This document shows positions 12,702-62,390 of a stretch of 62,665 nucleotides of DNA, piece after piece. Made by a program: the position numbers and the translations under genes. A model generated the notes under the pieces. It saw nothing but the letters and a program-made list of their open reading frames with translations. It ran no database searches and was not told the DNA's origin. The DNA comes from an uncultured Chromatiales bacterium (GTDB lineage: Bacteria > Bacteroidota > Ignavibacteria > SZUA-365 > CAYQST01): the NCBI GenBank assembly GCA_964449305.1, contig CAYUYM010000002.1, positions 1 to 62,665 of the forward strand, written 5' to 3'. Numbering within the stretch: the first letter of the stretch is position 1; every line of letters begins with the position of its first letter.

Positions 12702-13621
12702 ACCAGCAGAAATCGAAGAACGTCCTGGGCAAGGGCCTCGGCGCCCTCCTGCGCACGCTTCCCCCGGAGGAGGTCGAGCCGGTCACCACGCGCCCCGAAG
12801 CCATCCCGGAGGATGACGGCGAGACGGTGGGCATCCTTGCCCATGTGGAGATCGACCGCATCGAGCCCAATCCCTACCAGCCACGCCTGGAATTCAACGA
12901 GGCCGCCCTCAATGAGCTCGCCGAGTCCATCCGGCAGAACGGACTTGTCCAGCCCGTGACGGTGCGCCGCCACAACGGCGACTTCCAGCTCATCAGCGGG
13001 GAGCGCCGCCTCCGCGCATGCCGGCTGGCGGGCGTGACGCACATCCCCGCCTACATCCGCCGCGTCGACACGCGCGAGGAGATGATCGAGCTCTCCCTCA
13101 TCGAGAACATCCAGAGGGAGCATCTCAACCCGGTGGAAATCGCGGTCTCCTACAAGCGCCTCATGGATGAATGCGACTATTCGCACGACATGATCGCCCA
13201 CAAGATGGGCAAGGACCGCAGCACGGTGGTGAACTTCATCCGCCTGCTCAAGCTGCCGGAACAGATCGTCGATTCCATCCGCAAGAACGAGATCTCCATG
13301 GGGCACGCCCGCGCGCTTGTCAACCTGCCCTCGCGCGAAAGCCAGCTGCGCCTGTGGAGGAGGATCCTCACCGACAGCCTCTCGGTGCGAAAAGTGGAGG
13401 ACCTGGTGCGCCATGATCCTGCAAAGACGCCGTCCACACGCAGGGCCACCCCGGCGCAGGACGAGAACGTCCGCGCGCTCGAAGCCCGCCTGCGGGCCGT
13501 GTATGGAACAAAGGTGCGCGTGGAGCGTTCATCGAGAAACACCGGCACCATCACGCTCGATTTCTATTCCCTCGACGATCTTGAACGCATACTCGACATC
13601 CTTCTCACCACCCCGCAATGA
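12698..13621 (+). CDS. parB: Chromosome-partitioning protein ParB/Spo0J
   Basis: [10 protein letters not shown]-terminus, [15 protein letters not shown] (GxRR), [33 protein letters not shown] overlap with parA. Confidence 0.96.
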
Positions 13622-13744
13622 TCCGGCCTCCCGTCAGGCACACGGATCCACTTGGTCTGCTTCGTTTTTATCCCCGCATTTCTTACCTTCCCTCCCACCT
13701 GCCTGCCAATGATTTGGTCGCCCATTCATAACCACCGATCTGCC

Positions 13745-14764
13745 ATGAAAAACATCGCTTCGCTTCTCCTGGTTGTCATTCTCGGTATCCTCACGGTCTC
13801 CACCAGCCTCCCGGCACAGGATCTCAACCCTGTCGTCTATGCGGCCCTGTATGACGAGGGCAACATCGGCGTGATCAACCCCCTCAACGGGAAGCTCATC
13901 CAGCGCATCCAGGTGGGCCGCCATCCGGATGCGGTGGTCCTCAATGCCGCCTCCACACGGCTGTTCGTGTGCAACAGCGGGGAAATCACCGTGTCGGTGG
14001 TCGACATCCCCACCAACCGTGTGGCACAGGTTCTGCGTCTGCCAATCCTCCGCCGTGGCATCACGGCCGGTGCAATGACCCACACACCCGATGGAAAAAC
14101 GATCTACGTGGCCGAACGCTCGTCCACCGATCTTCCGCTGAATGTCTACGCCATCGATGTGGAGAGGGAGATGATCACCGGGCAGTTCGAGGCTGGTCCG
14201 TCCATCAGCGCCATGTCTGTGTCCCACGACGGTGCGCGTCTGTTCATCGTCCACCAGGGCCGGGGAATCAGCGTGTTCAACACGGGAACCATGAAGAAGG
14301 AGAAGGACATCCCCACGCTCGAGGGCATGACAGCCACAGTGACAGGCGTTGCGTGCAGCCCCACCGCCCCCAAGGCCTATGTGAGCTACGGCACCGCGAA
14401 CATGATTCAGATCATCAACACGGCGTCTCTCGAAGTCACCGGGAAGATCGCGATGCCCAAGTACCACACGGGCTCGCAGTTCGACGTGCTGTTCAGCCCC
14501 GATGGCGCCCGCGCCTTCGTCATCAACCGCAGGACCAACCTCAAGGAGGTCGACGGCATCAATGTGATCCGCAGCTCCGACGATGCGGTGATCAAGCTGT
14601 TCAATTCCGGCAACATCATGCGCGGCATGTTCGTGACCCCCGACAACAAGAGCTTCTACGTCGCTTCGGCGGATCTCAAGTGGTACAACCTCGAGTCCCT
14701 CGAACACATCAAGTCCATTTCGCTCAAGACCCAGATCGCCGGCATCGCCGTCATCTTCAAGTGA
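13745..14764 (+). CDS. Secreted YncE/YVTN-type beta-propeller protein
   Basis: Signal peptide, VGRHPDAV, LFVCNSG...VSVVD, repeated TPDGKTIYV / SPDGARAFV blades. Confidence 0.8.
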   Translation: MKNIASLLLVVILGILTVSTSLPAQDLNPVVYAALYDEGNIGVINPLNGKLIQRIQVGRHPDAVVLNAASTRLFVCNSGEITVSVVDIPTNRVAQVLRLPILRRGITAGAMTHTPDGKTIYVAERSSTDLPLNVYAIDVEREMITGQFEAGPSISAMSVSHDGARLFIVHQGRGISVFNTGTMKKEKDIPTLEGMTATVTGVACSPTAPKAYVSYGTANMIQIINTASLEVTGKIAMPKYHTGSQFDVLFSPDGARAFVINRRTNLKEVDGINVIRSSDDAVIKLFNSGNIMRGMFVTPDNKSFYVASADLKWYNLESLEHIKSISLKTQIAGIAVIFK

Positions 14765-14789
14765 TCCCCCGGCCGGATCCTTCCCGCCT

Positions 14790-15365
14790 GTGAGGTCGTT
14801 CACGCCGTCACCCTTCCGCCGGAGCCGCGCTGCATCCACTGCGCTCCGTGTGGTTGCGCTTCTTGTGCTGGCGTGGTCGCTGTCCCTGCCCATTCATCAG
14901 CACGTCTGCACGATGTCCGCCGCCTGTGGCGGGGAGCACGGCTGCCAGGAGTGCGGGAGGCCCACCATGCCCGCCCTGCCATCGATCGCCGTGAACTCCG
15001 CCGCTGAGGACGCGTCCTGCTGCGCCGATGCCCCGGTCGTGGAGGAGCCATCCTCCTGCTGTGCCGGTGATCCGGCATCCGTCGCGGATGAGACCGCGGA
15101 TCCGGTGCAAGCCTGCACCACGCCTCCCGAGGCCGGCCTCCCTGCCTTCGCCGCCATGCCGTGCTGCTCCGACGAACTCGTCACGGCCGGAGGTGGCGTC
15201 GACATCACCACCCCCACGGCCGCCGAAAGCGGCGCCCCGCTGGGGGCCACCGCACTGCCGCCCGCCACCAGCTCCCTCTCCGGTGGCATGGATGCCGCGG
15301 GATCGCTTCCCGGCTCCGTGCGACCACCCGGACCCGCCGCTCTGCCGCTCGTCCTTCGAATCTGA
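14790..15365 (+). CDS. Cys-rich exported protein resembling the HYC_CC_PP family, upstream of the metal-efflux operon
   Basis: Signal-like helix, HQHVC, three CC pairs, C-terminal RPP...LVLRI. Position directly 5' of tolC-cusB-cusA. Confidence 0.6.
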   Translation: MRSFTPSPFRRSRAASTALRVVALLVLAWSLSLPIHQHVCTMSAACGGEHGCQECGRPTMPALPSIAVNSAAEDASCCADAPVVEEPSSCCAGDPASVADETADPVQACTTPPEAGLPAFAAMPCCSDELVTAGGGVDITTPTAAESGAPLGATALPPATSSLSGGMDAAGSLPGSVRPPGPAALPLVLRI

Positions 15366-15531
15366 CATTCTCCCACGCATTTTCCGCCGGGGCGGGGCCT
15401 GAACGCTCCGCCGCCGTGCGGCAGATGCCCCGTCCGCCCGACAGCCTTCCCCTCCGGAATGCCGCGGGCGTTCGCCGTGTTGTGGGGAGATGAAGCGGTC
15501 AACGTACACACGATTCAACGGAAGAAACGAC

Positions 15532-16830
15532 ATGCAGCATACAGACCAATCCCATGGGATGCCTGCCCTGGCCCGGCGACACATCGTGCGGTGCCGTGGA
15601 GGACTCCTCATCCTGTCGGTGCTTGCGGCCCTCGCGCCCGCACCGATGAACGCCCAGACCCTCGACGCCATGATCGCCCGGGCGCTCGAACACCATCCGT
15701 CGATCAGGGCGGCGGAGAGCGACATGGCCGGTGCACGCGCCCTGGCGCGCGGCGCCGATGCATGGCCCGAGCCGGAGTTCGGCTTCGAGTTCATGGGGAC
15801 TCCCATCACCTCATTCAATCCGATCGCCGATGCGATGGAGTACGACTGGTCGCTGACCCAGATGATCCATTTCCCCGGCAGGCTCGGCCTCATGGGCGAC
15901 ATGGCGCGCCTGCGCTCGGGCATGGTGGCGGAGACCGCCGAGGCGGTGCGCCGTGAGGTGATCCGCCAGGTGCGCGAGGCGCATGCCATGCTCCACGCCG
16001 AACAGCGCCACGAGGCCATCAACGACGAGCAGGAGCGCACGATGCTCGGGATCATCGAGGCGGAGCGCTCGCGCTTTGCGGTGGCGCAGGCCACGCAGGC
16101 CGATCTGTCGCGCCTCGAGGTGGAGCTCCTGCAACTGCGCAACGAACGGACGGACGTGCGGCTCGCGCTGGGCCAGGCCTGGGCCATGCTCCGCTCCCTC
16201 GCGGCCGTGGATGGTGCCCTTCCTCCGGGTGCGGTGGAGCCCCCCCCCACGCCCGCACCGCCGCCGTCGTCGCAGGCACTGGAGGATTCCGCCCTCGCCC
16301 GCAATCCCGCCTACCGCGCCATGCAGCTCGAACTCGACATGCGACGCACCGACCTCACCCTGGCGCGCCGGGAATGGCTGCCCGATCTCATGGTGCGGGG
16401 CGTGTACAAGCAGCTCCCCATGGGCAGGACCGATGCCTGGTCCGTGATGTTCGGCTTTGCCATCCCCATCGCGCCATGGAGCAGCCCGCGGCGGGTGGCA
16501 CGGGAGGAGGGCGCAGAGCTGTCCCTCCGCTCCGCCGGTGAGCAGTTGCAGGCGATGGAGGCGATGCTCCGCTACCGCGTGCATGCCGCCTGGCTCCAGA
16601 GCACCGCCCTCTGGGAGCGCCTCACCCGACATCGCATGGAGCTGCTGCCGCGGGCCACGGAAAGCCTCGCCGGCCAGCTCGCATTGTTCCGCACCAACCA
16701 GGGCGGCCTGCTCGGGCTTCTCGATGCCTGGCGCATGGTCAAAATGTACACCATGGAGGCGGTGATGATTGAGGCGGGATACGTCTCCGCACTCGCCCGC
16801 CTCGAGGAACTCGTCGGAGGAGCGTCATGA
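15532..16830 (+). CDS. TolC/CusC-like outer-membrane efflux protein
   Basis: ALEHHPSIRAA, WPEPEF, WSLTQMIHFPG, REWLPDL, IPIAPWS. Heptad-rich helices. Start is 15532 or 15490. Confidence 0.88.
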   Translation: MQHTDQSHGMPALARRHIVRCRGGLLILSVLAALAPAPMNAQTLDAMIARALEHHPSIRAAESDMAGARALARGADAWPEPEFGFEFMGTPITSFNPIADAMEYDWSLTQMIHFPGRLGLMGDMARLRSGMVAETAEAVRREVIRQVREAHAMLHAEQRHEAINDEQERTMLGIIEAERSRFAVAQATQADLSRLEVELLQLRNERTDVRLALGQAWAMLRSLAAVDGALPPGAVEPPPTPAPPPSSQALEDSALARNPAYRAMQLELDMRRTDLTLARREWLPDLMVRGVYKQLPMGRTDAWSVMFGFAIPIAPWSSPRRVAREEGAELSLRSAGEQLQAMEAMLRYRVHAAWLQSTALWERLTRHRMELLPRATESLAGQLALFRTNQGGLLGLLDAWRMVKMYTMEAVMIEAGYVSALARLEELVGGAS

Positions 16831-18410
16831 TCACCACCATTCAACCGAAGGAGATCGTCGTGAAATGCATCGTCATCGTCTTCCTGGTCCTGGCCATGCT
16901 GCCGGGCTGCTCCACAAGGGAGCAGGAGGGCGCAGCAGCATCCGGAGAGGCGGCCGGACAGTACACCTGCCCCATGCATCCATCCGTGCTCAGCGACCGC
17001 CCCGGTGCCTGCCCGGTGTGCAACATGGCCCTGGTCAGGAAATCCGCCCAGAAGGAGATGAGCGCCGGGGAGGAGGCCATGCTCCGCACCGTCACGCTCT
17101 CGCCCTCCCAGCGCGTGCTCGCCAATGTGGCCACCACCCAGGTTGCGATGCGGGCGCTGGCGCGCGAGATCGCCCTCCCCGGTGTGGTGGATCATGCCGA
17201 ACCGCTCCAGGCCACCATCACCTCACGCGTCCGCGGCCGTGTGGAGAAGCTGCATGTCAACACCACGGGCGGGGTCGTCCGCCGCGGCGGCGCGCTCTGC
17301 GACATCTACAGCCCGGACCTCATCACCGCGCAGCAGGAGTATCTCACGATGCTGACCACCACCTCCGGGGCGACCGGCGGGGATGCCTCCACGCATGGCA
17401 GCATCCTCGCCACTGCGCGGCGACGCCTCCTCGATCACTTCGGGATGTCGGAAGCCCAGGTGCAGGAGCTGGAAACGACGCGCAGGGTGCGTGAGACCGT
17501 GACCATCCACACGACCATCGGCGGCACCGTCGTGCGCAAGGAGGTGCGCGAAGGGCAGTATGTGGCCGAGGGCGGCGTCCTGTTCCAGATCAGCGATCTC
17601 TCCCGCGTCTGGGTGTATGCCGAGGTGGGGGAGGGCGACCTGCGCTTCGTCCGCAGGGGACAGCCGGTGACCCTCCGTGCCGACGCCTGGCCGGGCGTGG
17701 CCTTCCAGGGGAGCGTCACCTTCATTGATCCCGTCGTGAACACGGCGACACGCACCGTGCGTGTGCGTGCTGAGTTCCCCAACGACGGAGGCCGCCTGAA
17801 ACCTGGCATGTTTGTCCAGGCCGTCATCGGCGCGTCGGTGGGGGCCGTGACGGCGGTGCCCACCACGGCCATCATCAACACCGGCACACGGTCCGTCGTG
17901 TGGGTGGAGGCGCGAAGCAACCAGTTTGAACCGCGCACGGTGACGACGGGCATCCGCTCCGAGGGGTTCACCGAGATCACGTCCGGCCTCTCGGAGGGGG
18001 AAACGGTGGTCGTTTCCGGTGGCTATCTCATCGATTCGGAGTCGCAGCTCCAGAATCCCGATGCCTGGCGTGCGGCCAACACCGCGCCGGCTCCTGCAAC
18101 GGGCTCCGCGGAACCGCCCGCGGCAGCCGATGCCGGCACGCCGGTGCGCACCATACGCATCACCGTGGATCTCGGCTACGAGCCAGAGGTCATCCGCGTG
18201 AAGAAGGGTGAAACGGTCCGGCTCCTGTTTGACCGGAAGGAGGATTCCGAGTGCAGTGAGGAGGTCGTGTTCAAGGACTTCGGCATCAAGCGCTTCCTCC
18301 CCGCCTTCAAGGCGACGCCCATCCTCCTCACACCGACAAATGCCGGAACCTTCACCTTCTCCTGCGGCATGGACATGCTGCACGGCAGACTCATCGTGGA
18401 GGAGAAATGA
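16827..18410 (+). CDS. cusB: CusB-type RND periplasmic adaptor with N-terminal heavy-metal-binding domain and C-terminal cupredoxin domain
   Basis: Lipobox LPGC, YTCPMHP...CPVCNMAL, IYSPDLITAQQEY, FIDPVVN..TRTV.VR, LKPGMFV. C-terminal GYEPEVIRVKKG...C...FSCGMDMLHG. Confidence 0.9.
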   Translation: MITTIQPKEIVVKCIVIVFLVLAMLPGCSTREQEGAAASGEAAGQYTCPMHPSVLSDRPGACPVCNMALVRKSAQKEMSAGEEAMLRTVTLSPSQRVLANVATTQVAMRALAREIALPGVVDHAEPLQATITSRVRGRVEKLHVNTTGGVVRRGGALCDIYSPDLITAQQEYLTMLTTTSGATGGDASTHGSILATARRRLLDHFGMSEAQVQELETTRRVRETVTIHTTIGGTVVRKEVREGQYVAEGGVLFQISDLSRVWVYAEVGEGDLRFVRRGQPVTLRADAWPGVAFQGSVTFIDPVVNTATRTVRVRAEFPNDGGRLKPGMFVQAVIGASVGAVTAVPTTAIINTGTRSVVWVEARSNQFEPRTVTTGIRSEGFTEITSGLSEGETVVVSGGYLIDSESQLQNPDAWRAANTAPAPATGSAEPPAAADAGTPVRTIRITVDLGYEPEVIRVKKGETVRLLFDRKEDSECSEEVVFKDFGIKRFLPAFKATPILLTPTNAGTFTFSCGMDMLHGRLIVEEK

Positions 18411-18450
18411 TGTCGATTGTCAACAGCCCCACCTTGATGCCGGAGCGGCC

Positions 18451-21400
18451 ATGATCCACGCCATCATCGATTTCTGCGCCCGCAACCGCTTCCTCGTGAT
18501 CGTGGCCTACCTCGTGGTGACCGGCTTCGGCATCTGGGCCGTGGCGACGACGCCCGTGGATGCGATCCCGGATCTGTCCGAGAACCAGGTGATCCTCTTC
18601 ACCGAGTGGATGGGCCGGTCGCCGCAGCTTGTGGAGGACCAGGTCACCTTCCCGCTTGTCACCGCGCTGCAGGGCATCGCCGATGTGCAGGCCGTGCGTG
18701 CGCAATCCATGTTCGGGATGTCCTTCGTCTACATCATCTTCAACGACAGGACGGACCAGTACTGGGCGCGGACGCGCGTGCTGGAGAAGCTCACCTCGGT
18801 GCAGGGCAGCCTCCCGCGCGATGCGAGGGTGCAGCTCGGCCCCGATGGCACGGGCGTGGGGCATGTGTACTGGTACACACTCGAGGGACCGCTCGACCTC
18901 GGCGAACTGCGCGCCATCCAGGACTGGTACGTGCGTCTTCATCTCCAGGGCGTGCAGGGCGTGGCCGAGGTCGCCTCCATCGGCGGCCACGTTCGGCAGT
19001 ACCAGGTGGATGTGGACCCGGCAAAACTGCGCTCCTTCGGTCTCTCCATCAGCGATGTGCGCACCGCCATCCTGCGCTCCAACAACGACGTGGGCGGCAA
19101 GCTCATCGAACAGGCGGATCAGGAGATGTTCATCCGCGGCCAGGCCTACATCTCGTCGCTTGCCGACATCGAGAACATCGCCATCAGGACAGGCGCGGCC
19201 GGAACCCCGGTGTTCATCCGCGACATCGCCACCGTGCAGACGGGGGGCGACATCCGACGTGGAGCGCTGGAAAAGAACGGGGAGGGGCAGGTGGTGGGTG
19301 GCGTGATCGTCGCCCGGTCGGGGGAGAATCCCCGTGAGGTGATCGAGCGTGTCCGCCGGCGCATCGCGGAGATCAGCCCCGGCCTGCCGCCGGGCGTGTC
19401 GATCCACACGGCCTACGACAGGAGCAGCCTCATTGATGCCGCCGTCGGCACGCTGGAGAAGGCGCTCATCGAGGCATCCATCGTCGTCACCATCATCGTT
19501 CTCATCTTTCTTCTGCATTTCCGCAGCGTGCTGCGCGTCATCATCGAGATCCCCGTGGCCGTGCTCATCGCCTTCATCTTCATGCATGTGCTCGGCATCA
19601 CGAGCAACCTCATGTCCCTCGGAGGCATCGTCATCGCCATCGGCGTCATTGTGGACGCCTCCATCGTGCTGGTGGAGAACGCGCACCGAACCGTGGCACG
19701 GGCACAGGAGGAGCGCGGGGAGCTCCGACCGCAGGACTACATCGAGCTGTCCATCCAGTCCGCCAGGCAGGTGGGCCCGGCCATCTTCTTCTCCGTGCTG
19801 ATCATGGTCGTCTCCTTCCTGCCGGTGTTCCTGCTCGAGGGGCAGGAGGGGAGGCTGTTCCATCCACTGGCGTGGACCAAGACCTTCGTCCTCCTCGGAT
19901 CGGCCATCATCGCCATCACGCTCGTGCCGGTGCTCATGACGCTGCTCACACGCGGTCGTTTCAGACCTGAACACCGCAATCCCGTCACCCGCGTTCTCAA
20001 CGCGCTCTATGCGCCGGTCATCCACTGGGTGCTGCGGCACCCCGCCATCACCATCGGCATCAACGTGCTGGCGCTGCTCATCACGGTGCCCATGGTGATG
20101 CGCACCGGGTCCGAGTTCATGCCGCCGCTGGATGAGGGCAGCCTGCTCTTCATGCCCGTCACACTCCCGTCGGCCTCCATCACCGAGGTCAACCGCATCC
20201 TCCAAGTGCAGGACGCCATCATCAGGTCCGTGCCGGAGGTGGAATCGGTGCTTGGCAAGACCGGCCGCGCGGAGACGGCCACCGACCCCGCGCCGGTGAG
20301 CATGATCGAGACCATCATCCTGCTGAAACCGCGCGACCAGTGGCGCCCCGGCGTCACGAAGGACGACATCATCGCGGAGCTCGACGCCCGCCTCCAGATT
20401 CCCGGCGTGCGCAACGGCTGGACGCAGCCCATCATCAACCGCATCAACATGCTGGCCACGGGCGTGCGCACGGATCTGGGTGTGAAGATCTTCGGCTCCA
20501 ACCTCGACACGCTCGAGATGCTCGCCGTGGAGGCCGAGAAGATCCTGCGCGACATCCCCGGTGCTGCGGATCTCTATGCCGAGCGCACCATCGGCGGCGT
20601 GTTTCTCGACATCGACATCGACCGTGATGCGGTGGCCCGCCTGGGTGTGACCACGGCCGATGTGCAGGACGTGATCGAGACGGCCATCGGCGGCGAGAAC
20701 ATCACGTCGGTGTACGACGGCCGGCGGCGCTTTCCGCTGCGTGTGCGCATCGCCCGCGAGTTGCGTGACAACATCGACGCCATCGCCAGCCTCCCCGTGC
20801 CGGTGAACGTGACCACTGCGGAGGCGGCCACCCCCACGGACGCCCCTCCCGCCGAACCGGCGGCTGCAGGCATGGGCGGCATGTCCATGGCGGGCGGCGG
20901 TGGCGGGGCACCGGCATCGGTCGCCGGGCCGGCGGCAGCCGCGGCGACGGGCGACGAGCGCATGACGGTGAGCAGCCGAGCCTACGTTCCGCTGTCCCAG
21001 CTTGCCACCATTCGCATGACACCGGGGCCGTCGATGATCTCGAGCGAGGACGCGAAGCTGCGTTCCATCGTGATGCTCAACGTCCGCGGCCGCGACATGG
21101 GTGGCTTCGTCACCGAGGCGCGCGAAAAGCTCGCCGGGGCGCTGAAGCTCCCCGCAGGCTACACCCTGCTGTGGAGCGGGCAGTGGGAGAACCAGCTCCG
21201 TGCCAGGGCCCGGCTGCAGGTGGTGATGCCCGTCGTGTTCCTCATTATTTTCGTGCTCCTCTATGTCATCACACGCGATTTTGTCGAGGCTGGCATCGTG
21301 ATGCTCTCTGTGCCCTTCGCCCTCGTTGGCGGGGTGTACTTCCTGTACGCGCTCGGCTTCAACTTTTCCGTGGCCGTGTGGGTGGGCTTCATCGCCCTCT

Positions 21401-21786
21401 ATGGCGTGGCCGTGGAGACCGGTGTGGTGATGGTCGTCTACCTGCACGAGGCGCTCGACCGCCGCATCCTGGCGCACAGGCGCGGCGAGCGGGGACCGCT
21501 GACGCAGGCCGACATCGATGAGGCCACGCGCGAAGGGTCCATCCTCCGCCTGCGGCCGAAGGTCATGACGGTGGGGACCTCCCTCATCGGCCTGATCCCC
21601 GTGATGTGGAGCACCGGCGTGGGCGCCGACATGATGAAACCGCTCGTCGCCCCCATGATCGGCGGCCTCATCACCTCCGCCGTGCATGTGCTCGTGGTCA
21701 CCCCCGTGCTTTTCAAGATCATGAAGTCGCGTGCCCTGAGGAAGGGCTCGCTCGAGCTCTCCAAGATGGCGGACTGGATGCGGTGA
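18451..21786 (+). CDS. cusA: CusA/CzcA family heavy-metal efflux RND permease (Cu/Ag type)
   Basis: DAIPDLSENQVI, NLMSLGGIVIAIGVIVDASIVLVEN, EFMPPLDEGSLLFMP, MIETII, RLRPKVMT. The Met pattern matches the CusA Cu(I) site. Confidence 0.95.
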   Translation: MIHAIIDFCARNRFLVIVAYLVVTGFGIWAVATTPVDAIPDLSENQVILFTEWMGRSPQLVEDQVTFPLVTALQGIADVQAVRAQSMFGMSFVYIIFNDRTDQYWARTRVLEKLTSVQGSLPRDARVQLGPDGTGVGHVYWYTLEGPLDLGELRAIQDWYVRLHLQGVQGVAEVASIGGHVRQYQVDVDPAKLRSFGLSISDVRTAILRSNNDVGGKLIEQADQEMFIRGQAYISSLADIENIAIRTGAAGTPVFIRDIATVQTGGDIRRGALEKNGEGQVVGGVIVARSGENPREVIERVRRRIAEISPGLPPGVSIHTAYDRSSLIDAAVGTLEKALIEASIVVTIIVLIFLLHFRSVLRVIIEIPVAVLIAFIFMHVLGITSNLMSLGGIVIAIGVIVDASIVLVENAHRTVARAQEERGELRPQDYIELSIQSARQVGPAIFFSVLIMVVSFLPVFLLEGQEGRLFHPLAWTKTFVLLGSAIIAITLVPVLMTLLTRGRFRPEHRNPVTRVLNALYAPVIHWVLRHPAITIGINVLALLITVPMVMRTGSEFMPPLDEGSLLFMPVTLPSASITEVNRILQVQDAIIRSVPEVESVLGKTGRAETATDPAPVSMIETIILLKPRDQWRPGVTKDDIIAELDARLQIPGVRNGWTQPIINRINMLATGVRTDLGVKIFGSNLDTLEMLAVEAEKILRDIPGAADLYAERTIGGVFLDIDIDRDAVARLGVTTADVQDVIETAIGGENITSVYDGRRRFPLRVRIARELRDNIDAIASLPVPVNVTTAEAATPTDAPPAEPAAAGMGGMSMAGGGGGAPASVAGPAAAAATGDERMTVSSRAYVPLSQLATIRMTPGPSMISSEDAKLRSIVMLNVRGRDMGGFVTEAREKLAGALKLPAGYTLLWSGQWENQLRARARLQVVMPVVFLIIFVLLYVITRDFVEAGIVMLSVPFALVGGVYFLYALGFNFSVAVWVGFIALYGVAVETGVVMVVYLHEALDRRILAHRRGERGPLTQADIDEATREGSILRLRPKVMTVGTSLIGLIPVMWSTGVGADMMKPLVAPMIGGLITSAVHVLVVTPVLFKIMKSRALRKGSLELSKMADWMR

Positions 21787-21802
21787 AACGGGGGATGCCC
21801 TC

Positions 21803-21824
21803 GCGTGCGGTTCCCTCCGCACGC
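21803..21824 (+). terminator. GC-rich hairpin after cusA (possible terminator or RNA-stabilising stem)
   Basis: GCGTGCGG-TTCCCT-CCGCACGC, an 8-bp stem with no U-tract. Confidence 0.3.
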
Positions 21825-21915
21825 TGGGGCACGCCACACATGTTGGAGGGAAGCGGCCATCCCGGTATTTTTCTCGTCGGAAATCGTTTGACTCATCAGC
21901 AGAGAAAGCTTCGAA

Positions 21916-23223
21916 GTGCATACACGAAACGTCTTCATGGAAACCTACGGCTGTCAGATGAACTTCGCGGACAGCGAGATCATCGCAGGCATCCTCCACG
22001 AGCACAACTTCCGGCAGTGCGGGGAGATCGAGACCGCGGATGTCATCTTCCTCAACACCTGTTCCATCCGCGAGCACGCCGAACAGCGCGTCTACGGGCG
22101 CCTGGAGAATCTCGGTCACCTGAAGCGGAGGAATCCGCGCCTCGTGGTGGGCATTCTCGGCTGCATGGCCGAGCGCCTGCGCCACGACCTCATCGAGGAG
22201 CGGCAACTGGTGGACATCGTCTGCGGGCCGGACGAATACCGCTCCCTGCCCGCGCTCATCGATCACGCCCTGCTTGGTGAGAAGGGCATCCGTGTGAAGC
22301 TGTCGCGGACGGAGACCTACGACGACATCATCCCGTAGCGCACCGCATCCAGCAGCGCCTGGCTGGCGGTGATGCGCGGCTGCGACAAGTTCTGTGCCTA
22401 TTGCGTCGTGCCCTACACCCGCGGGCGTGAACGCAGCCGCAACCTCGAATCCATCATCGCCGAGGTGCACCGGCTCGCGTCGGAGGGCGTCCGCGAGCTC
22501 ACCCTGCTCGGCCAGAACGTCAACTCCTACAACGACGAGGGCCGTGATTTTTCGGACCTGCTCGCCGCTGTCGCCGACGCGGAACCGGGCATGCGCATCC
22601 GCTTCACCACATCGCATCCGCAGGACATGTCCGACACGCTGATCGACACCATCGCCTCGCGCCGCAACCTGTGCAACACCATCCAGCTTCCGGTGCAGAG
22701 CGGCTCCAACCGCATTCTCGCCGCCATGAAACGCGACTACACCCGCGAGCACTACCGGGGCCTTGTGGAGAAGATCCGCGCCGCCATGCCGGACGCGACC
22801 ATCACCACCGATTTCATCGCCGGCTTCCCGGGTGAAACGGAGGAGGACCACGAGGACACGCTGGCGCTCATGCGCGAGGTCCGCTTCGATTCCGCCTTCA
22901 TGTTCAAGTACTCGCCGCGGGAGAACACCCGTGCGTGGGACTTCGGGGACGACGTCCCGGACGATGTGAAGACGCGCCGCCTCAACGACATCATCGTGCT
23001 GCAGCATCGGATCGCCCTCGAACGCAACCGCGCGATGATCGGCACCGAGGAGGAGATCCTGCTCGAGGGACCGAGCAGGCGCTCCGACGCGGACTGGGTG
23101 GGCCGCACCGACGGCAACAAACCCGTGATCGTGCCCTTCGACGGCTTCACCGCCGGGCAGCTTCTGCGCGTGCGCATCACGGATGCGAGCTCGGCCACGC
23201 TGTTCGGGGAGCTCCCCGCCTGA
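21916..23223 (+). CDS. miaB: tRNA methylthiotransferase MiaB, interrupted by a single in-frame TAG at 22336-22338
   Basis: 5' part is the UPF0004 domain (TYGCQMN, NTCSIRE, LGCMA). After TAG the same frame continues RTASSSAWLAVMRGCDKFCAYC (radical SAM CxxxCxxC), LLGQNVNSY, RFTTSHP, DFIAGFPGE, and a TRAM domain. The joined length is 435 codons. Confidence 0.93.
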
Positions 23224-23257
23224 CGCATCCCGGCCTGCGGGGGACATGGTTTTTTCG

Positions 23258-23265
23258 TACATTTG
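23258..23265 (+). promoter_or_regulatory. Bacteroidota-type -7 promoter box (TAnnTTTG)
   Basis: TACATTTG in the intergenic gap upstream of the sigma-54 activator. Confidence 0.5.
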
Positions 23266-23367
23266 ATGCCGGATCCATGCAAGGATTCATCCCCGTATCG
23301 TCATGACCCCAGCACCGCACCCAGCACTGAATCCTCCTCCATCCCGCACCACCGGGAGGCGTTTCTG

Positions 23368-24551
<1,184 letters not shown>

Positions 24552-24555
<4 letters not shown>

Positions 24556-25076
24556 CCAGCCGTTCAACGTCCCGCGTCCTTGTGCTGTGCTGCGTGGCTG
24601 CCGCCTGTGTTCTCATTGGAGCCGGCTGCAACTACTCCTTCACGGGAGCTGCGGTGCCACCACACTGGAAGTCCATCGCCATCCCCCTGTTCGAGGACGA
24701 AAGCGCCTTCGGGCAGCCATCGTTGCGGGAGAACCTCACGAACAGCCTCATCTCCAGGATCCAGCGCGACAACACGCTGCAGCTCGCCGACCGGCAGGCG
24801 GCCACGGTGGAGCTGAAGGGGCGCATCACAACCATCAACGCCGACAAACCCCTCGCCGTCGCACCCGGCGAGCAATCCTCCCGTCTCCAGGTGATAATCT
24901 CCGTAGCCGCGGAGCTCCTCGACAACACCACGAAAAAAACCGTCTGGACGAAGACGTTCCAGGCCACGGGCGAGTACAACGCCGCAGCCGGCGCCGTTGG
25001 TCGCGATGAAGGCATCCAGAAGGCCATCGACAAACTTTCGGATGATCTCTTGCTCGAAACCATGTCTTCTTGGTAA
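24552..25076 (+). CDS. lptE: LPS-assembly lipoprotein LptE
   Basis: Lipobox [20 protein letters not shown], terminal [11 protein letters not shown]. Synteny with the sigma-54 activator as in Bacteroidota. Confidence 0.85.
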
Positions 25077-25081
25077 ATTTG
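25074..25081 (+). promoter_or_regulatory. Possible -7 box overlapping the lptE stop codon
   Basis: TAAATTTG about 40 nt upstream of the GT2 start, in a locally AT-rich stretch. Confidence 0.3.
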
Positions 25082-25121
25082 TGTCTTGTTTTCTACACTC
25101 ATTGAGGTGGTGATTGAGATT

Positions 25122-26588
25122 ATGGAACATTTGATACTCGGTGCATATTTCGTCTGTCTTTCGATCCTGTTTTTGTTCAGCACCCATGGCTTCGTCATGG
25201 TGTACTACTACTTCAAGAACAAGGACAGGCGGCCCGCTCGGAAGGACGTGCTCGATGAGTATCCGATGGTGACGGTCCAGCTCCCTCTCTACAACGAGCT
25301 CTATGTGGTGGAACGGCTCATCGACGCCGTCTGCGACATCGAGTATCCGAGGGACAGGATGGAAATCCAGGTGCTTGATGATTCAACCGATGAAACGGTG
25401 GACCTCGTTGCGCGCCTCGTCGCCACAAAACGTCAGCTCGGCTTCGACATTGTCCAGGTGAGGCGTGATTCACGTGCCGGATTCAAGGCTGGAGCTCTTC
25501 GCGAGGGATTGAGCAGGGCGAAAGGCGAGTTCATCGCCATCTTCGACGCCGACTTTGTCCCCCGGAAAGAATTCCTGTCGGAAACAATGCGGCACTTCGT
25601 CAACGACTCCATCGGCATGGTGCAGACCCGCTGGGAACACCTCAACAACGACTATTCGGTGTTGACGCGCGCCCAGGCCATTGCGCTCGACGGGCACTTC
25701 GTCATCGAGCAGCAGGTGCGCAACAAGACGGATTTCTTCATCAACTTCAACGGCACCGCCGGCGTCTGGCGCAAGTCCTGCATCCTCGATGCCGGGAACT
25801 GGGAGGACGACACCATCACCGAGGATCTGGATCTGAGCTATCGCGCCCAGCTCAGGGGGTGGAAGTTCGTGTACCTCAACACCGTCACCTCCCCGGCTGA
25901 GCTGCCATCGGAAATCAACGCCCTGAAATCCCAGCAGTTCCGTTGGACCAAGGGCGCAATCGAGACGGCGAAGAAGATCCTCCCGCGCGTCTGGAAGGCG
26001 AAGCTCCCGTTCCGCGTCAAGCTCCAGAGCACCTTCCACCTCACCAACAACATCGTCTTTCCCTTCATTCTTCTGACAGGCATCCTCCAGGTCCCCCTCA
26101 TCTTCATCAAGCAGAGCGGGGAATACGAGACCTTCTTCCTCTTCATGTCCGTCTTCGTGCTCGCCTTCGTCGCATCCTTCCTCTTCTACCTGTACTCCCA
26201 GAAGGATGTGTATGCGGACTGGAAGAAACGCATCTTCCTGTTCCCGCTCTTCATGGCCGGATCCATGGGCTTCGCCGTGAACAATTCCAAGGCGGTGATC
26301 GAGGGCCTCATCAACAAGAAAAGCGCCTTCATCCGCACGCCGAAGTTCCGCATCGAAAAGGTGGGCGACAAGTGGCAGAACAAGAAGTACCGCGTCGGCG
26401 GGAAGCGCCGCGTCACCTTCTCCATCATCCTCGAGCTCGTTCTCGCCGCCTACTGCCTCATCGGCGTCGGCGCGTCGTTCTACTTTGTCGAGATCGCGGC
26501 CCTGCCGTTCCAGCTCATGTTCTTCTTCGGTTTCGCCATCGTCGGGTCCATGTCCATCCGACACGCGCTCTTCGCCGGCCATTCCTGA
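25122..26588 (+). CDS. Processive glycosyltransferase family 2 (cellulose-synthase-like)
   Basis: VTVQLPLYNE, QVLDDS, GFKAGAL, FDADF (DxD), TEDLDLS, QQFRW (QxxRW), with N- and C-terminal TM helices. Confidence 0.92.
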   Translation: MEHLILGAYFVCLSILFLFSTHGFVMVYYYFKNKDRRPARKDVLDEYPMVTVQLPLYNELYVVERLIDAVCDIEYPRDRMEIQVLDDSTDETVDLVARLVATKRQLGFDIVQVRRDSRAGFKAGALREGLSRAKGEFIAIFDADFVPRKEFLSETMRHFVNDSIGMVQTRWEHLNNDYSVLTRAQAIALDGHFVIEQQVRNKTDFFINFNGTAGVWRKSCILDAGNWEDDTITEDLDLSYRAQLRGWKFVYLNTVTSPAELPSEINALKSQQFRWTKGAIETAKKILPRVWKAKLPFRVKLQSTFHLTNNIVFPFILLTGILQVPLIFIKQSGEYETFFLFMSVFVLAFVASFLFYLYSQKDVYADWKKRIFLFPLFMAGSMGFAVNNSKAVIEGLINKKSAFIRTPKFRIEKVGDKWQNKKYRVGGKRRVTFSIILELVLAAYCLIGVGASFYFVEIAALPFQLMFFFGFAIVGSMSIRHALFAGHS

Positions 26589-26707
26589 TCGCCACGCGAT
26601 CCGCCTCCACCCCATCCGTCATCGGATCATGGTCACAGACGCTTTCCCCGCTGTCGGCTGCGATCCGATGATGCGTTTCGGACCCGCCCCCTCCCAAGGA
26701 CGACGCC

Positions 26708-27538
26708 ATGGATGACACCCTCGACAGACTCCGGCAGCAGCTCGCGGACGCCGCGCACTCCCCCGTGTTCGCGCGCCTCGCCGATGCCCTGCTCGACGCG
26801 GGGGAACTGCAGGAGGCGTGGGCCGTGTGCCGCGAGGGCATCCGCCTCCATCCACGCTATGTGACGGGCCACGTCGTCACAGCCAAGGCCGCAGCCTGCC
26901 TCGGCCGCTTTGCCGAGGCGCACGATCTGCTGCTCCAGGCCCTCGACATCCTGCCGCACTGCCCTGCGGCGCAGCGCCTGCTCGACGCCCTGCCGGACAT
27001 CGAGCTCCGTTTTCCCCAGCGCTCCCACAACGTCCTCCTCGACACGGAACGCCACCATCTCGCGGGCATCGAACGACCCCCGCCGCGCCGCCGCCCCCGC
27101 TCCGTCGGCAACCTTGCCCCCGACCGGCGCGAGCTCGCCCGCATCGCCGAGTCCATCCCGATGACGGTGGCACCGCCGGTGCCGCCGGACATCCTCATCC
27201 CGACCCCCGTGGAGGAGGACCATGCTCTCATGCCAGGTGGATCGGTGGAGGACAACCTTGAACACCTCGCCCAGGTGCTTGAGACGGCACGCATCCCCAT
27301 CGTGGAGGAGGATCCGGACACGCAGCCCCCAGAGGCACGGGGCGACTTCGGGCCCGACACCTCCCGCCGGCCCGCCACCGAGACGCTCGCATCCATCTAC
27401 CTGAAACAGGGGCGCGTGGAGCAGGCCATCGAGATCTACGAGATCCTGGCACGGCGTTCGCCGCAGCGCCGCCACGAATTCCACCAGCGCATCGAAGAAC
27501 TGCGCGCCATGCCGCCCGAAGGCGAGCTGGCGCCCTGA
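26708..27538 (+). CDS. TPR-containing hypothetical protein
   Basis: N-terminal TPR-like helices and a C-terminal TETLASIYLKQG..EQAIEIYE motif typical of the Bacteroidota gene downstream of lptE. Confidence 0.7.
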   Translation: MDDTLDRLRQQLADAAHSPVFARLADALLDAGELQEAWAVCREGIRLHPRYVTGHVVTAKAAACLGRFAEAHDLLLQALDILPHCPAAQRLLDALPDIELRFPQRSHNVLLDTERHHLAGIERPPPRRRPRSVGNLAPDRRELARIAESIPMTVAPPVPPDILIPTPVEEDHALMPGGSVEDNLEHLAQVLETARIPIVEEDPDTQPPEARGDFGPDTSRRPATETLASIYLKQGRVEQAIEIYEILARRSPQRRHEFHQRIEELRAMPPEGELAP

Positions 27539-27551
27539 CAAGGAGACCACC

Positions 27552-28094
27552 ATGCCCATCACCACATCCGACTCCGTCCTCCTCATCATCGACATCCAGG
27601 GCCGGCTCGCCCGCATCGTCCAGGATTCCGAGAAGCTCATCTCCAACGTGCGCATCCTTGTGCAGGGCATGAAGATCCTTGGCGTGCCCGTCATCGTCAC
27701 CGAGCAGTATCCGCAGGGCCTCGGGCACACCGTGGACGAGATCGCCCAGGAACTCGATGGGATCGATGTCATCGAGAAATCCGCCTTCAGTTGCTGCGGC
27801 GAGCCGGCCTTCATGAGTGCCCTCGCCGGGCTCGGCCGCCCCAATGTGCTGATGTGCGGCATCGAAACGCATGTCTGCGTGTACCAGACGGCCCGGGACC
27901 TTGTGGCCGCGGGCTACACCCCCCACCTCATCACCGATGCCGTCTCCAGCCGCTTTGCGGAAAACCGGACGCTCGGCGTGCATCGCATCGAGATGCTCGG
28001 AGGCGTGCTCACCGGCATGGAGATGGCGCTCTTTGAGCTCCTCCATGAATCCGGCACGCCACAGTTCAAGGCGATTTCCCGCCTTGTGAAATGA
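27552..28094 (+). CDS. Isochorismatase-family cysteine hydrolase
   Basis: LLIIDIQ, TEQYPQGLGHT, EKSAFSCC, GIETHVCVYQTA. AGGAG RBS. Confidence 0.92.
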   Translation: MPITTSDSVLLIIDIQGRLARIVQDSEKLISNVRILVQGMKILGVPVIVTEQYPQGLGHTVDEIAQELDGIDVIEKSAFSCCGEPAFMSALAGLGRPNVLMCGIETHVCVYQTARDLVAAGYTPHLITDAVSSRFAENRTLGVHRIEMLGGVLTGMEMALFELLHESGTPQFKAISRLVK

Positions 28095-28132
28095 CAACGG
28101 GGCGCTGGTGCGCCCCGGACATTGGAGGAAAC

Positions 28133-28168
28133 AAAAAAAAACGGGTTGATGCAGATCAACCCGTTTTT
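28133..28168. terminator. Bidirectional rho-independent terminator
   Basis: AAAAACGGGTTGAT-GCAG-ATCAACCCGTTTTT is a perfect 14-bp inverted repeat with A/T tracts on both sides, between convergent genes. Confidence 0.85.
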
Positions 28169-28200
28169 CGTGCAGCCTTGCGGATGTCACCCGATGGCGA

Positions 28201-30285
28201 TCACTTCTTGGTGAATGTCTCCGCCGGAGGATTCGTGTTGTGCTTGATCGAGGTGACGTCGATGTCGATCACAGCCTGGCCCACATTGAGGGACACCTTG
28301 AAGGGCACCTTCACCCCGTCCACATCGCGGTAGTCGGAGTAGCGTGTCTCGAGCGTCATCGTGCCCTCGGGCGTCGTCTGCACACGGTCCTCACCGAAGA
28401 GGAGCCAGGTGTTCGCGTCGATGAGCAGCGTCTGCCTGCCGTGTTTGCGCTCCACTTCGAGCACATACACCTTGGTGCCATTGATCTTGCGGATCACGGT
28501 GGCGTTCACCTTCCAACCCAGCTCCTTTGCACGGAACAGCGGCAGGAATTCAGCGTCCTCAAGCTCCTCGGCAAGTTCCTCGCCTTCCATGGTGTTGACG
28601 CGCGGACCGGCGGCGGTGACCACCCCCTTGCCATCGCACCATTTCTCCTGCGAGCCCATCATCTTCACGGTCATGTTCTCGTAGGAACGGTTCGGGCGGG
28701 CCTTCACTTCCTTGATCGTGCCCTCGATGGTCTGCGGACCGGCGGCGATCTTCACCGTGCCCTCCATCACGCGATCCTTGATCGCATTGACGGCGGCCTC
28801 GGTTCCGATGGCGGCAAGGTGCTTCTTCAGCAGCGTCTCACCATCGATGTCGGAGGCGATCGCAGACTCGATGGGCTTCATGTCGGTGTCGTATTCCTTC
28901 ACGTCACCGAAGGTTTCGAGCAGCGGCTTGATCACTGACCCGTCGCCCACGGCGGTGATGGCGACGTTGTCCGTGTTCCAGTACTTCTTTGCGGCCTTCT
29001 GGATGTCCTCGGCCGACACAGCCATGACCTTCGAGATGTAGGTCTTGTAGTAGTCCTTCGGCAGACCGTAGAGGTCGATGTCCTGCATGCGGCTCACCAC
29101 GCTCATGGGGCTTTCGAGGCTCAGCAGGAAGGTGCCGGCGAAGTACTGCTTGTGGCGGTCCAGCTCCTCGGCCGGGACGGGTTCGGTCTGCATGCGCTTC
29201 ATCTCACCCAGGGTCTCGACGATGGCGGAGTCCGTGGCGATGCGGCGCACCGATGCGGAGGCCTCCCAGAGGCCGCCCATCTTGCGCGAGTCGAGGCTGC
29301 TGTAGGCGCCATAGGTGAAGGCGCGCTTTTCGCGGAGGTTCTGGAACAGCCGTCCGCTGAAGCCGCCGCCGAGGATGGAGTTCGCAAGGCGCAGCGTGGG
29401 GTTGTCGGCATCCTTGCGCTTCAGGCCGGTGGTGACGATGCACATCTCGGTCTGGCTCTGCGTGGTGCCGAGATCCACGAGGTGCACACCCTTGCCCTTG
29501 ATCGGCTTGATGGCCGGGAGGTTGACCGACGGAAGCGAGCCGCCCTGCCAGGCGCCGAAGTACTTCTTCACGAGGGGCATGATCTCCTCGGGCGTCACAT
29601 CACCCACGATCGCGAGGCTCGCATTGGCGGGGATGAAGTAGGTCTTGTGGAAGTTCACGATGTCGTCGCGCGTGATCGCATTGGTGGACTCCTCGGTCCC
29701 GAAGTTCGCATACGGGTGTCCGGCGTAGGCCACGGTGATCTTCAGGCGGTCCGAGATCGCCCCCGGGTCCTTCTTCTCGGACTTGAGACCCGAAAGCGTC
29801 TGCTTCTTCAGCTTGTCGATCTCGTCCTGCGGGAAGGTGGGGTTGAAGAGCGCGTCGGTCATGAGGTCGAGGATCTTCTCGGTGTGCTTCTTGAGGCCGC
29901 TTCCGAAGAACGACATCTGATCGTCGGCGGCTGATGCGCCGACATTGACGCCGATCATGTCGCCCTCCCTGGCGAACTGCAGGGACGAGCGCGTCTTTGT
30001 GCCCTTGGTCATGAGGTCGGTGGTGAAGGATGCGACACCCGACTTGCCGGCGCCGTCGTTCTCCGAACCGGATTTGATCATGAGGCGGAAGGTGACGACG
30101 GGCTGTGAGTGGTTGGAGATGAGGAGCACCTTGAGGCCGTTTCCGAGCCGTTCCTCCTGGTAGTCCGGGAAGGCGGCCTGGGGGGCGGGGCCAGCGGGTG
30201 GCTGCTTGGTGCGGTCGATCTGTGCAAGAAGGGAACCCGTGCAGAACAGGGTGACAATGGCGAGGGTGATGATTCTGGTTTTCAT
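28201..30285 (-). CDS. M16B peptidase non-catalytic subunit with an extra C-terminal domain
   Basis: Signal peptide, RLGNGLKV, no HxxEH (GVASFTTDLM instead), GGGFSGRLFQNLREKRAFTYG. An extra ~210-aa domain ends YSDYRDVDGVKVPF. Confidence 0.85.
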   Translation of the reverse strand: MKTRIITLAIVTLFCTGSLLAQIDRTKQPPAGPAPQAAFPDYQEERLGNGLKVLLISNHSQPVVTFRLMIKSGSENDGAGKSGVASFTTDLMTKGTKTRSSLQFAREGDMIGVNVGASAADDQMSFFGSGLKKHTEKILDLMTDALFNPTFPQDEIDKLKKQTLSGLKSEKKDPGAISDRLKITVAYAGHPYANFGTEESTNAITRDDIVNFHKTYFIPANASLAIVGDVTPEEIMPLVKKYFGAWQGGSLPSVNLPAIKPIKGKGVHLVDLGTTQSQTEMCIVTTGLKRKDADNPTLRLANSILGGGFSGRLFQNLREKRAFTYGAYSSLDSRKMGGLWEASASVRRIATDSAIVETLGEMKRMQTEPVPAEELDRHKQYFAGTFLLSLESPMSVVSRMQDIDLYGLPKDYYKTYISKVMAVSAEDIQKAAKKYWNTDNVAITAVGDGSVIKPLLETFGDVKEYDTDMKPIESAIASDIDGETLLKKHLAAIGTEAAVNAIKDRVMEGTVKIAAGPQTIEGTIKEVKARPNRSYENMTVKMMGSQEKWCDGKGVVTAAGPRVNTMEGEELAEELEDAEFLPLFRAKELGWKVNATVIRKINGTKVYVLEVERKHGRQTLLIDANTWLLFGEDRVQTTPEGTMTLETRYSDYRDVDGVKVPFKVSLNVGQAVIDIDVTSIKHNTNPPAETFTKK

Positions 30286-30299
30286 GGCTGGTGCTCCGT

Positions 30300-31643
30300 T
30301 CAATTCTCGTTGGCCTTGTCATCCTGCTGCATCACCGTGTAGAGCACGGTGTTCATGCGCGCAGGTTTCAGGTAGGTGTTCGCGACGCGCTTGATGTCGT
30401 CACGCGTCACCGCCATGTACTTCCTGTACTCCTCGTTGACGAGCTTCGTGTCGCCATAGAACAGGGAGGCACGGGCGAGCTCGCCGAGCTTGCCGTCGAG
30501 CGACATGAACTTCTGGGCGAACTCCGCCTCCTTGTTGTTGCGGGCCTTCTGGAACTCCTCCTCGGTCACGCCGTTGGCGAGCACCTTGTCGAGCTCGTCC
30601 TTGATGGTCGTGCGGATCTTGTCCATCTCCACGCCCTGGTTGGCGATGCAGAAGAAGGCGAAGAGGCCGGATTTTTCGAGCGCAAAGGGGAAGGCCCCTG
30701 CCTGGATGGCGAGCTGGTCCTGATCCACCAGCCGCTGGTAGAGCCGCGAGCTGCGACCGTTCGAGAGGATGTCGGAAAGGAATTCGAGCGCGTAGGCATC
30801 CTTGTGACGCTGGCCCACGGTGAGGTAGGACTCGATGATCGCGGGGAGCGGCGTCATCTTCTCCTCCACCGTCATCTCACGCGACTCCTTCTGCTCGGGG
30901 ATCACCACGGGGATGCGCTTCGGCGCGGTGCCGGCGGGAATGGGTTCGAAGTAGTCCTTGATCCACTTCTTCGTCTGGGCGATGTCGAGATCGCCGCCCA
31001 CCACCAGGCAGGCATTCTTCGGGATGTAGAACTTCGAATGGAAATCGAGGAACTGCTGTGTCGATGCCTTGTTGATGTGTTCCGGTGTGCCGATCGGCGT
31101 CCACTGGTACTGCGTGCCCTTGAAGGTGGACTTGAACAGGTTGTCCATGAGCGTGCCGTAGGGACGGCCCTCATAGCGCTGTTTCAGCTCCTCCTTCACC
31201 ACCTTGCGCTGCGTCTCGATGCCGATGGAATCGATCACGAGGCTCATCATGCGCTCGGATTCCATCCACAGGGCGAGCTGCAACTGGTGGATGGGGACCT
31301 TGATGTAGAAGTCGGTCTGGTCGAACGAGGTCGAGGCATTGAACTGGCCACCGGCCGCGGTGATCAGTTTGTCGAGCGTGCCACGCTTGATGTTTGCCGT
31401 GCCCTCGAACATGAGGTGCTCGAAGAAGTGGGCGAAGCCCGTCATGTTCGGGTCCTCATCCTTCGATCCGACCTTGTAGAGCAGGTAGGTCATCGCGGTC
31501 GGCGCCGTCCTGTCGGTGTGCAGGATCACGGTGAGACCGTTCTTCAGCTTGTACTCCTCGTACTTGATCGGGTTGAAGCTCTGTGCCATGAGGCTGGCAG
31601 AGCACGCCACGAGCAAGACGACGAGCAGTTTCAGTGCTTTCAT
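30300..31643 (-). CDS. M16B zinc peptidase catalytic subunit
   Basis: Signal peptide, LKNGLTV, TGFAHFFEHLMFEG (HxxEH), NASTSFDQT, VVKEE, SSRLY. Confidence 0.93.
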   Translation of the reverse strand: MKALKLLVVLLVACSASLMAQSFNPIKYEEYKLKNGLTVILHTDRTAPTAMTYLLYKVGSKDEDPNMTGFAHFFEHLMFEGTANIKRGTLDKLITAAGGQFNASTSFDQTDFYIKVPIHQLQLALWMESERMMSLVIDSIGIETQRKVVKEELKQRYEGRPYGTLMDNLFKSTFKGTQYQWTPIGTPEHINKASTQQFLDFHSKFYIPKNACLVVGGDLDIAQTKKWIKDYFEPIPAGTAPKRIPVVIPEQKESREMTVEEKMTPLPAIIESYLTVGQRHKDAYALEFLSDILSNGRSSRLYQRLVDQDQLAIQAGAFPFALEKSGLFAFFCIANQGVEMDKIRTTIKDELDKVLANGVTEEEFQKARNNKEAEFAQKFMSLDGKLGELARASLFYGDTKLVNEEYRKYMAVTRDDIKRVANTYLKPARMNTVLYTVMQQDDKANEN

Positions 31644-31716
31644 GCGTACGTCCTGAATGGTGAAGGGTGTATGGGGAAAAGACAATGTCCGGATGATGGG
31701 ATGGTGGCGACAGGGG

Positions 31717-53955: not shown

Positions 53956-54224
53956 GCACACCATTTTTCCATTGTGGCTCGTCTGGCGCGCAAACGCCGA
54001 TCCGGGGCGTTTCGTTCCCGGCATTTCGGAGGAATTTTCTCGTTTCGAAAAAACCCGTATCTTCCTCCCTTCATTTGCGACTTCCAGTATCTCGAAAGCA
54101 CCAAACGATTGATCAGACCTGATAGAGCCACATCTCACCTGACCGGGAAGGGAGTCCGCCCACAGTGATCCCCCATGTCCTGAAGGTGGCGGCGCCCCAT
54201 TCACCACAAACCATGGAGCCCACT

Positions 54225-54719: not shown

Positions 54720-54728
54720 AGGACAGAA

Positions 54729-55220: not shown

Positions 55221-55229
55221 GGGGCCATC

Positions 55230-56984: not shown

Positions 56985-56992
56985 GGCGCACC

Positions 56993-62353: not shown

Positions 62354-62390
62354 GGTCTTCTTAGACAGATCTTAGAAGACCTTAAGGTCT
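62330..62390. repeat. Palindromic element, copy 1
   Basis: GGGCCGGACGGGGCC followed by AGACCTTAAGGTCTTCT-12 nt-AGAAGACCTTAAGGTCT (17-bp inverted repeat). Each arm contains the self-palindrome AGACCTTAAGGTCT. Confidence 0.9.

Follow-up and report, generated by a model that had tools for sequence, protein, structure and literature searches.

The window, the whole 62,665-nucleotide stretch of DNA that was analysed, contains a miaB gene whose reading frame is interrupted by an amber codon. This gene lies between an efflux pump gene and a regulator gene on the same strand. The features at the interruption and around it are given below, with the basis of each assignment in brackets.

18448-21786, + strand: upstream neighbour, a cusA/czcA-type RND efflux pump gene (Pfam ACR_tran, 763 bits)
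21916-23223, + strand: miaB, tRNA (i6A37-C2)-methylthiotransferase, interrupted in the window assembly (TIGR01574 score and alignment of homologues)
21916-22338, + strand: open reading frame of the N-terminal fragment, 140 amino acids (UPF0004/MTTase N domain with three Cys; homologues with PF00919)
22336-22338, + strand: in-frame TAG (amber) codon, followed by C (between the open reading frame at 21916-22338 and the remainder of the gene up to 23223)
22337-22352, + strand: patch of six substitutions private to the window assembly (comparison with public contigs)
22349-22375, no strand assigned: inverted repeat GCATCAGCGCC / GGCGGTGATGC of the intact allele (10 of 11 positions complementary, 5-nucleotide loop)
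22369-23223, + strand: open reading frame of the C-terminal fragment (GTG at 22369, ATG at 22372; radical-SAM and TRAM domains)
23368-24555, + strand: downstream neighbour, a sigma-54-dependent Fis-family activator gene (Pfam Sigma54_activat, 240 bits; HTH_8)

The efflux pump gene is the last of an OEP-CusB-CusA set that begins at 15403 (Pfam HlyD_D23 and OEP). The closest relatives of the organism are Bacteroidota-, Ignavibacteria- and Kapabacteria-type metagenome-assembled genomes (MAGs), and the window has a GC content of about 63%. In a large protein database no match to its MiaB exceeds 73% identity, and among the GTDB species representatives found none exceeds 61%. Metagenomes of wastewater, activated sludge and sediment contain near-identical sequence at low depth, and the organism is poorly sampled.

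The assignment of the interrupted gene to the MiaB family is unambiguous. A translation with L placed at the stop scores 483.4 bits against TIGR01574, the NCBIfam equivalog model for MiaB (cut-off 355.3), and the MtaB and RimO models give 281 and 274 bits, each under its own cut-off. The protein is 60-73% identical to full-length MiaB from Bacteroidota-, Ignavibacteria- and Kryptonia-type MAGs, and its alignment with the solved MiaB of B. uniformis (PDB 7MJV/7MJZ) runs from end to end. Its homologues carry the domains PF00919, PF04055 and PF01938, with which it is collinear to the C-terminal end. All six MiaB cysteines, which the initial annotation had described as intact, are present: C13, C49 and C83, followed by C156/C160/C163 in the motif GCDKFCAYC. 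Apart from the broken frame, the window gene is a standard MiaB by each feature tested.

That a single in-frame TAG splits the gene is likewise confirmed, since both open reading frames lie in one frame on either side of 22336-22338 and the next base is C. The C-terminal fragment is annotated as a 283-amino-acid protein (P0034) with PF04055 and PF01938. The initial annotation placed a possible restart at an ATG at 22369, a detail that needs correction because the codon at 22369 is GTG, with the ATG three bases on, at 22372. From either start the conserved SAW-x-x-V strand before CxxxCxxC is lost, as had been argued. The open frames, the cysteines kept in both halves and the GTG/ATG start 31-34 nucleotides past the stop are compatible with a functional two-piece enzyme, in which the N-terminal 140 residues and the C-terminal 283-284 residues would be made separately and then assemble. 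Loss of this strand speaks against such an arrangement, as do the absence of a split MiaB among the full-length homologues listed and the unsplit conspecific allele described below, and we regard it as extremely improbable.

Alignment with homologues reveals a second defect beside the stop. In the stop column, the 29 aligned homologues have L (23), Y (5) or V (1), and the B. uniformis MiaB has S. After the stop, the window reads R-T-A-S-S-S-A-W where the same 29 sequences read R-T/E-(E/D)-G-(I/L/V/H)-S-A-W. Codons 22345-22353 consequently encode A-S-S in columns that hold E or D, then G in 29/29, then I, L, V or H. The patch therefore costs the protein a glycine that none of the 29 homologues lacks, along with an acidic residue for which they have only E or D, and the earlier view that the gene has no other lesion does not hold.

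Contigs of the same organism in public metagenome runs have neither defect. Relative to the window, their substitutions are A>T at 22337, C>A at 22346, A>G at 22347, T>G at 22348, C>G at 22349 and G>T at 22352. At this site, the window allele is TAG CGC ACC GCA TCC AGC (*-R-T-A-S-S). The intact allele is CCG TTG CGC ACC GAG GGC ATC AGC (P-L-R-T-E-G-I-S), which equals the family consensus and has the pattern TTG...GAGGGCAT at this site. A profile built from the homologues favours the intact over the window allele by 7.9 bits. By our reading of the two sequences, the patch may equally well be written as a deletion of GAGG with an insertion of CAGC four bases on, together with T>A at 22337. It abuts and overlaps the left arm of the inverted repeat at 22349-22375, and the predicted fold over 101 nucleotides is -38.8 kcal/mol for the intact allele versus -36.2 kcal/mol for the window allele.

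The runs that carry this organism are four wastewater metagenomes from one study (X1-X4), an activated-sludge metagenome from a second study (X9) and a sediment metagenome from a third (X7). They were examined as Logan contigs rather than raw reads, and Logan retains only k-mers that are present at least twice per run (PMC12424806). X1-X4 each hold 74-79% of the sampled 31-mers of the miaB stretch, at a depth of about 3-7x. An X3 contig of 540 nucleotides (22117-22656, depth 5.2) and an X4 contig of 633 nucleotides (22211-22843, depth 3.6) are the same as the window save at the six patch sites. An X1 contig (depth 6.5) covers the gene from 22353 on and opens with GCGCACCGAGGGCAT, which is the intact patch. 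The X7 contig (184 nucleotides, depth 3.7) is identical to the window over 22353-22513 and opens with ATCCCGTTGCGCACCGAGGGCAT, again the intact patch. For the X9 contig (151 nucleotides, depth 2.6), five of the six patch changes are listed, and its mismatches to the window total six. The intact allele is thus seen in Logan contigs of five runs (X1, X3, X4, X7 and X9) from three studies. The single uninterrupted MiaB frame that the window lacks is present in X3, X4, X7 and X9 over the stretch that their contigs cover.

None of the public contigs compared carries the window allele. A search of X1-X4 contigs at 97% likeness returned none, and X2 has no contig over the patch site; the contigs of both X1 and X2 break around it. 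With a 91-nucleotide query over the patch, no indexed run matched more than 1/7 of the sampled 31-mers, X3 and X4 included. Because X3 and X4 have the intact allele across the site and yet match no more than 1/7, the other six words would overlap the patch and be absent from the indexed runs. X7 contigs that cover the patch positions with no difference listed were considered as possible support for the TAG allele and set aside: the X7 contigs over the stretch were only two foreign ones (5 mismatches in 35 nucleotides), and these are taken to explain the depth at the patch. At the site, X8, X10, X11, X12, X13, X14, X15, X20 and X25 yielded radical-SAM motifs of other organisms or nothing. A 25-mer scan of JGI metagenome contigs that tolerated both alleles gave 0 matches. 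The GTDB species representatives include no member of the species and no close sister, the best MiaB among them being 60-61% identical, and a protein search with a 176-amino-acid segment of the intact allele found no near-identical partial proteins, its matches reaching at most 72% identity. These data establish that the intact allele exists and that it prevails wherever contigs span the site; the window allele has no support in the indexed runs. On these contigs, the lesion is absent from independent population data that carry an intact alternative.

The wider comparison of the window with X1-X4 over positions 12000-31999 shows agreement without indels, about nine isolated single-nucleotide variants and one other cluster. 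The isolated variants are at 19017, 19644, 20760, 20921, 20979, 24583, 24987, 30064 and 30695. At each of the other variant sites covered by more than one run, the window base is shared by at least one run, so the contig acts as a population consensus except at the miaB patch. This patch is the only place covered by several runs where all of them disagree with the window. Since the agreeing run varies by site, the contig resembles a mosaic consensus drawn from closely related strains, each at 3-7x. The other cluster lies inside the cusA/czcA-like gene, where seven substitutions in 34 nucleotides (20595-20628) occur in X3 alone, and X2 and X4 match the window. Its mostly 3-nucleotide spacing suggests a short recombination or strain-variant tract that affects synonymous positions; as far as such a tract can be read, it shows real microdiversity in the population.

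Because the stop is private to the window assembly and five public runs are intact with Leu, the most likely explanation is either a mistake in the assembly or a dead allele of low frequency. Between these two, we favour an artefact of assembly or consensus over a rare real allele and infer it with a probability of roughly 0.58. The error would have arisen locally in a low-coverage population (about 3-7x per run) beside a GC-rich inverted repeat. The normal miaB of the organism would then be uninterrupted, with Leu-Arg-Thr-Glu-Gly-Ile at the site, and the real cell would make an ordinary full-length MiaB with nothing read through. The evidence that points this way is the presence of the intact allele in X1, X3, X4, X7 and X9 with the window allele in none of X1-X4, and the standing of the patch as the sole place covered by several runs that lacks support across 20 kb. 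The swap of three conserved residues, for which the intact allele restores the family consensus (+7.9 bits), argues in the same direction. Six changes within 16 bases on an otherwise identical background are also unlike the build-up of independent mutations. The initial annotation had considered a one-base error of sequencing or assembly, or else a nonsense mutation of recent origin, to be the most parsimonious explanation. This proposal stands as to the kind of lesion, which is private to the assembly and faces TTG in five runs, but not as to its size, because the stop belongs to a cluster of six substitutions (22337, 22346-22349 and 22352) that separate the window from the conspecific runs.

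The local context also favours an artefact: coverage is low, the X1 and X2 contigs break here, and the adjoining inverted repeat contains GGC motifs. Inverted repeats and GGC contexts have been reported to cause consecutive Illumina miscalls and to hamper assembly (PMC3141275). A sequence-specific Illumina error is a possibility that this context fits, although the base changes do not follow simple dephasing, in which by our own reading the miscall would equal a neighbouring base. Other observations weigh against an artefact of any kind. No further assembly error appears across the 20 kb compared, and short-read assemblers normally keep the better-covered path. Logan contigs lose minority variants, and the TAG allele could accordingly be rare in X1-X4 or could dominate an unindexed source sample.

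These same observations lend some weight to a null allele of recent origin that is real but rare or confined to one strain, an explanation that we consider distinctly less probable than an artefact but still a serious alternative. Such an allele would have arisen by one complex event (multi-nucleotide or compensated-indel) at the inverted repeat, in a strain that dominates the source sample. The population has genuine microdiversity, as the X3 patch at 20595-20628 and the isolated variants indicate, and Logan contigs show presence rather than absence, which leaves room for a minority or unsampled strain. The usual preference of assemblers for the majority path would imply real support in the source reads, and the rest of miaB is without decay, which fits a very recent event. 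On the other side, the 31-mers of this allele appear to be absent from all indexed public runs, and five runs from three studies show the intact allele only. The X3 tract looks synonymous, whereas the miaB patch hits invariant residues and creates a stop. The mutant palindrome is also not more perfect than the intact one, unlike the products of template-switch mutation (-36.2 versus -38.8 kcal/mol). If this allele is real, then the strain would lack ms2i6A37 and keep i6A37. Loss of ms2i6A37 is tolerated and miaB is dispensable in laboratory bacteria, and the case would come down to a tRNA-modification gene with an ordinary segregating loss.

Several specific origins for the patch were considered and rejected. 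A quasi-palindrome (template-switch) mutation is not supported because the window allele weakens the local hairpin and folds less well than the intact allele. Copying of the patch from elsewhere in the window is equally unsupported, as shared k-mers reach at most 13 nucleotides. The 13-mer ATCCCGTAGCGCA is common to the lptD stop region (2502-2514) and the miaB amber site (22330-22342). This match is not significant because intact miaB differs from it by a single A, and judged by the sequences the sharing is probably coincidental. The 11-mer CACCGCATCCA occurs six times, at 22341, 23390, 38537 and 59512 on the + strand and at 21785 and 49512 on the - strand. Its copy in miaB is created by the patch, and it is the joint most frequent 11-mer in the window. 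As an uptake-signal-like motif it was discarded: several other 11-mers occur 5 times, and codon or composition bias is the probable cause.

The more striking proposal in the initial annotation was a feedback based on programmed amber readthrough, in which a near-cognate tRNA would decode UAG-C and MiaB output would be tied to the state of tRNA modification. The context is suggestive in one respect, since C lies directly 3' of the TAG and E. coli terminates relatively weakly at UAG-C. It is also the case that ms2i6A37 influences decoding by tRNAs that read UNN codons. The stop, however, is not conserved: the 29 homologues have L, Y or V in this column, B. uniformis MiaB also has a sense residue, and conspecific contigs have TTG. 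A sense codon in relatives and conspecifics is the outcome that the proposal had set against itself. The patch moreover removes the invariant Gly and the invariant acidic residue just upstream of the radical-SAM motif, so that even a read-through product would probably be impaired. We therefore consider programmed readthrough very unlikely, and the miaB site gives no support to a new feedback of this kind. A weaker version, in which a single wastewater strain would carry the patch as a real, fixed allele and low-level near-cognate decoding of UAG-C would yield a small amount of altered MiaB (E-G-I to A-S-S), with hypomorphic ms2i6A synthesis that depends on the tRNA-modification state, is more doubtful still.

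Recoding of TAG, either as pyrrolysine or by genome-wide amber reassignment, has nothing in its favour besides the in-frame TAG itself. As the initial annotation had observed for the lptD, GNAT, yceH, RAM and nuoE-like genes, TAG remains a terminator in the window. At least six genes end with it, each with complete Pfam domains and with a separate gene downstream: lptD (LptD_2), GNAT, DUF480/yceH, AsnC-RAM, the nuoE-like 2Fe-2S gene and a thioredoxin-like gene. TAG ends 12 of the 48 stop-to-stop open reading frames with GC3 support, a count in which some of the 12 are likely antisense, and a stop-to-stop scan of the window showed no split genes beside miaB. The pattern expected of a reassigned codon, with TAG unused as a terminator and many in-frame TAGs, is not what the window shows. 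A tRNA search of the 62.7-kb window found only a tRNA-Met (CAT) and no tRNA with a CUA anticodon. The suggestion of pyrrolysine insertion fares no better, given this result, the sense residue (mostly Leu) in homologues and the use of TAG as a terminator in the window. To our knowledge, MiaB is not a pyrrolysine protein. Because TAG is a normal stop, the conspecific allele is intact and the only tRNA in the window is tRNA-Met, neither readthrough nor pyrrolysine nor reassignment is supported, and we rate recoding in either form as improbable in the extreme. The amber codon in miaB is not a designed or real recoding feature.

Two other parts of the window deserve mention. At 54165-60703, a row of genes on the same strand comprises an AsnC/RAM gene (ending in TAG), a nuoE-like 2Fe-2S gene (ending in TAG), a nuoF-like FMN/4Fe-4S gene and a gene for a 1240-amino-acid protein. 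The first three are in one reading frame with gaps of about 10 nucleotides, so that a stop-to-stop scan makes them look like pieces of a split gene, but every one of them has a start codon of its own and a complete domain match. The end of the window contains a direct repeat of about 100 nucleotides at 62296-62400 and 62550-62665 (...CGGATTCCTGCG.GCGTTG...GGCCGGACGGGGCCAGACCTTAAGGTCTTCTTAGACAGATCTTAGAAGACCTTAAGGTCT). Within it, the palindrome AGACCTTAAGGTCT has three exact copies (62345, 62377 and 62626), where 0.04 are expected by chance. The copies at 62345 and 62377 form a long hairpin-like palindrome just past an open reading frame that ends at 62353. This repeat could be a terminator, a REP-like element or a repeated gene end.

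Compared with known systems, the window gene has the layout of the MiaB family (TIGR01574; B. uniformis 7MJV-7MJZ), with UPF0004, radical-SAM and TRAM domains and the six cluster cysteines. It differs from this family in a TAG at codon 141 and in A-S-S for the family E/D-G-hydrophobic, and the conspecific allele in the public runs has neither defect. Programmed readthrough and pyrrolysine decoding of UAG offer a likeness only in the in-frame UAG within a conserved gene and the C at +4; they differ in that the window stop is unconserved, TAG is a normal terminator and the window contains no suppressor tRNA. A closer likeness is to the assembly or consensus errors and segregating nonsense alleles of low-coverage MAGs, with which the lesion shares its privacy to one assembly, a depth of 3-7x per run, contig breaks in two runs and a GC-rich site with an inverted repeat. 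For this class, six substitutions (or a four-base deletion and a four-base insertion with one substitution) are an unusual pattern, and outside the patch the contig agrees with the runs. The miaB case nevertheless fits this known category of an assembly-private lesion in a low-coverage MAG, or at most a segregating nonsense allele. It is also a caution, because an in-frame stop in a low-coverage metagenome contig mimicked a candidate for recoding, and independent runs show that the allele of the species is intact.
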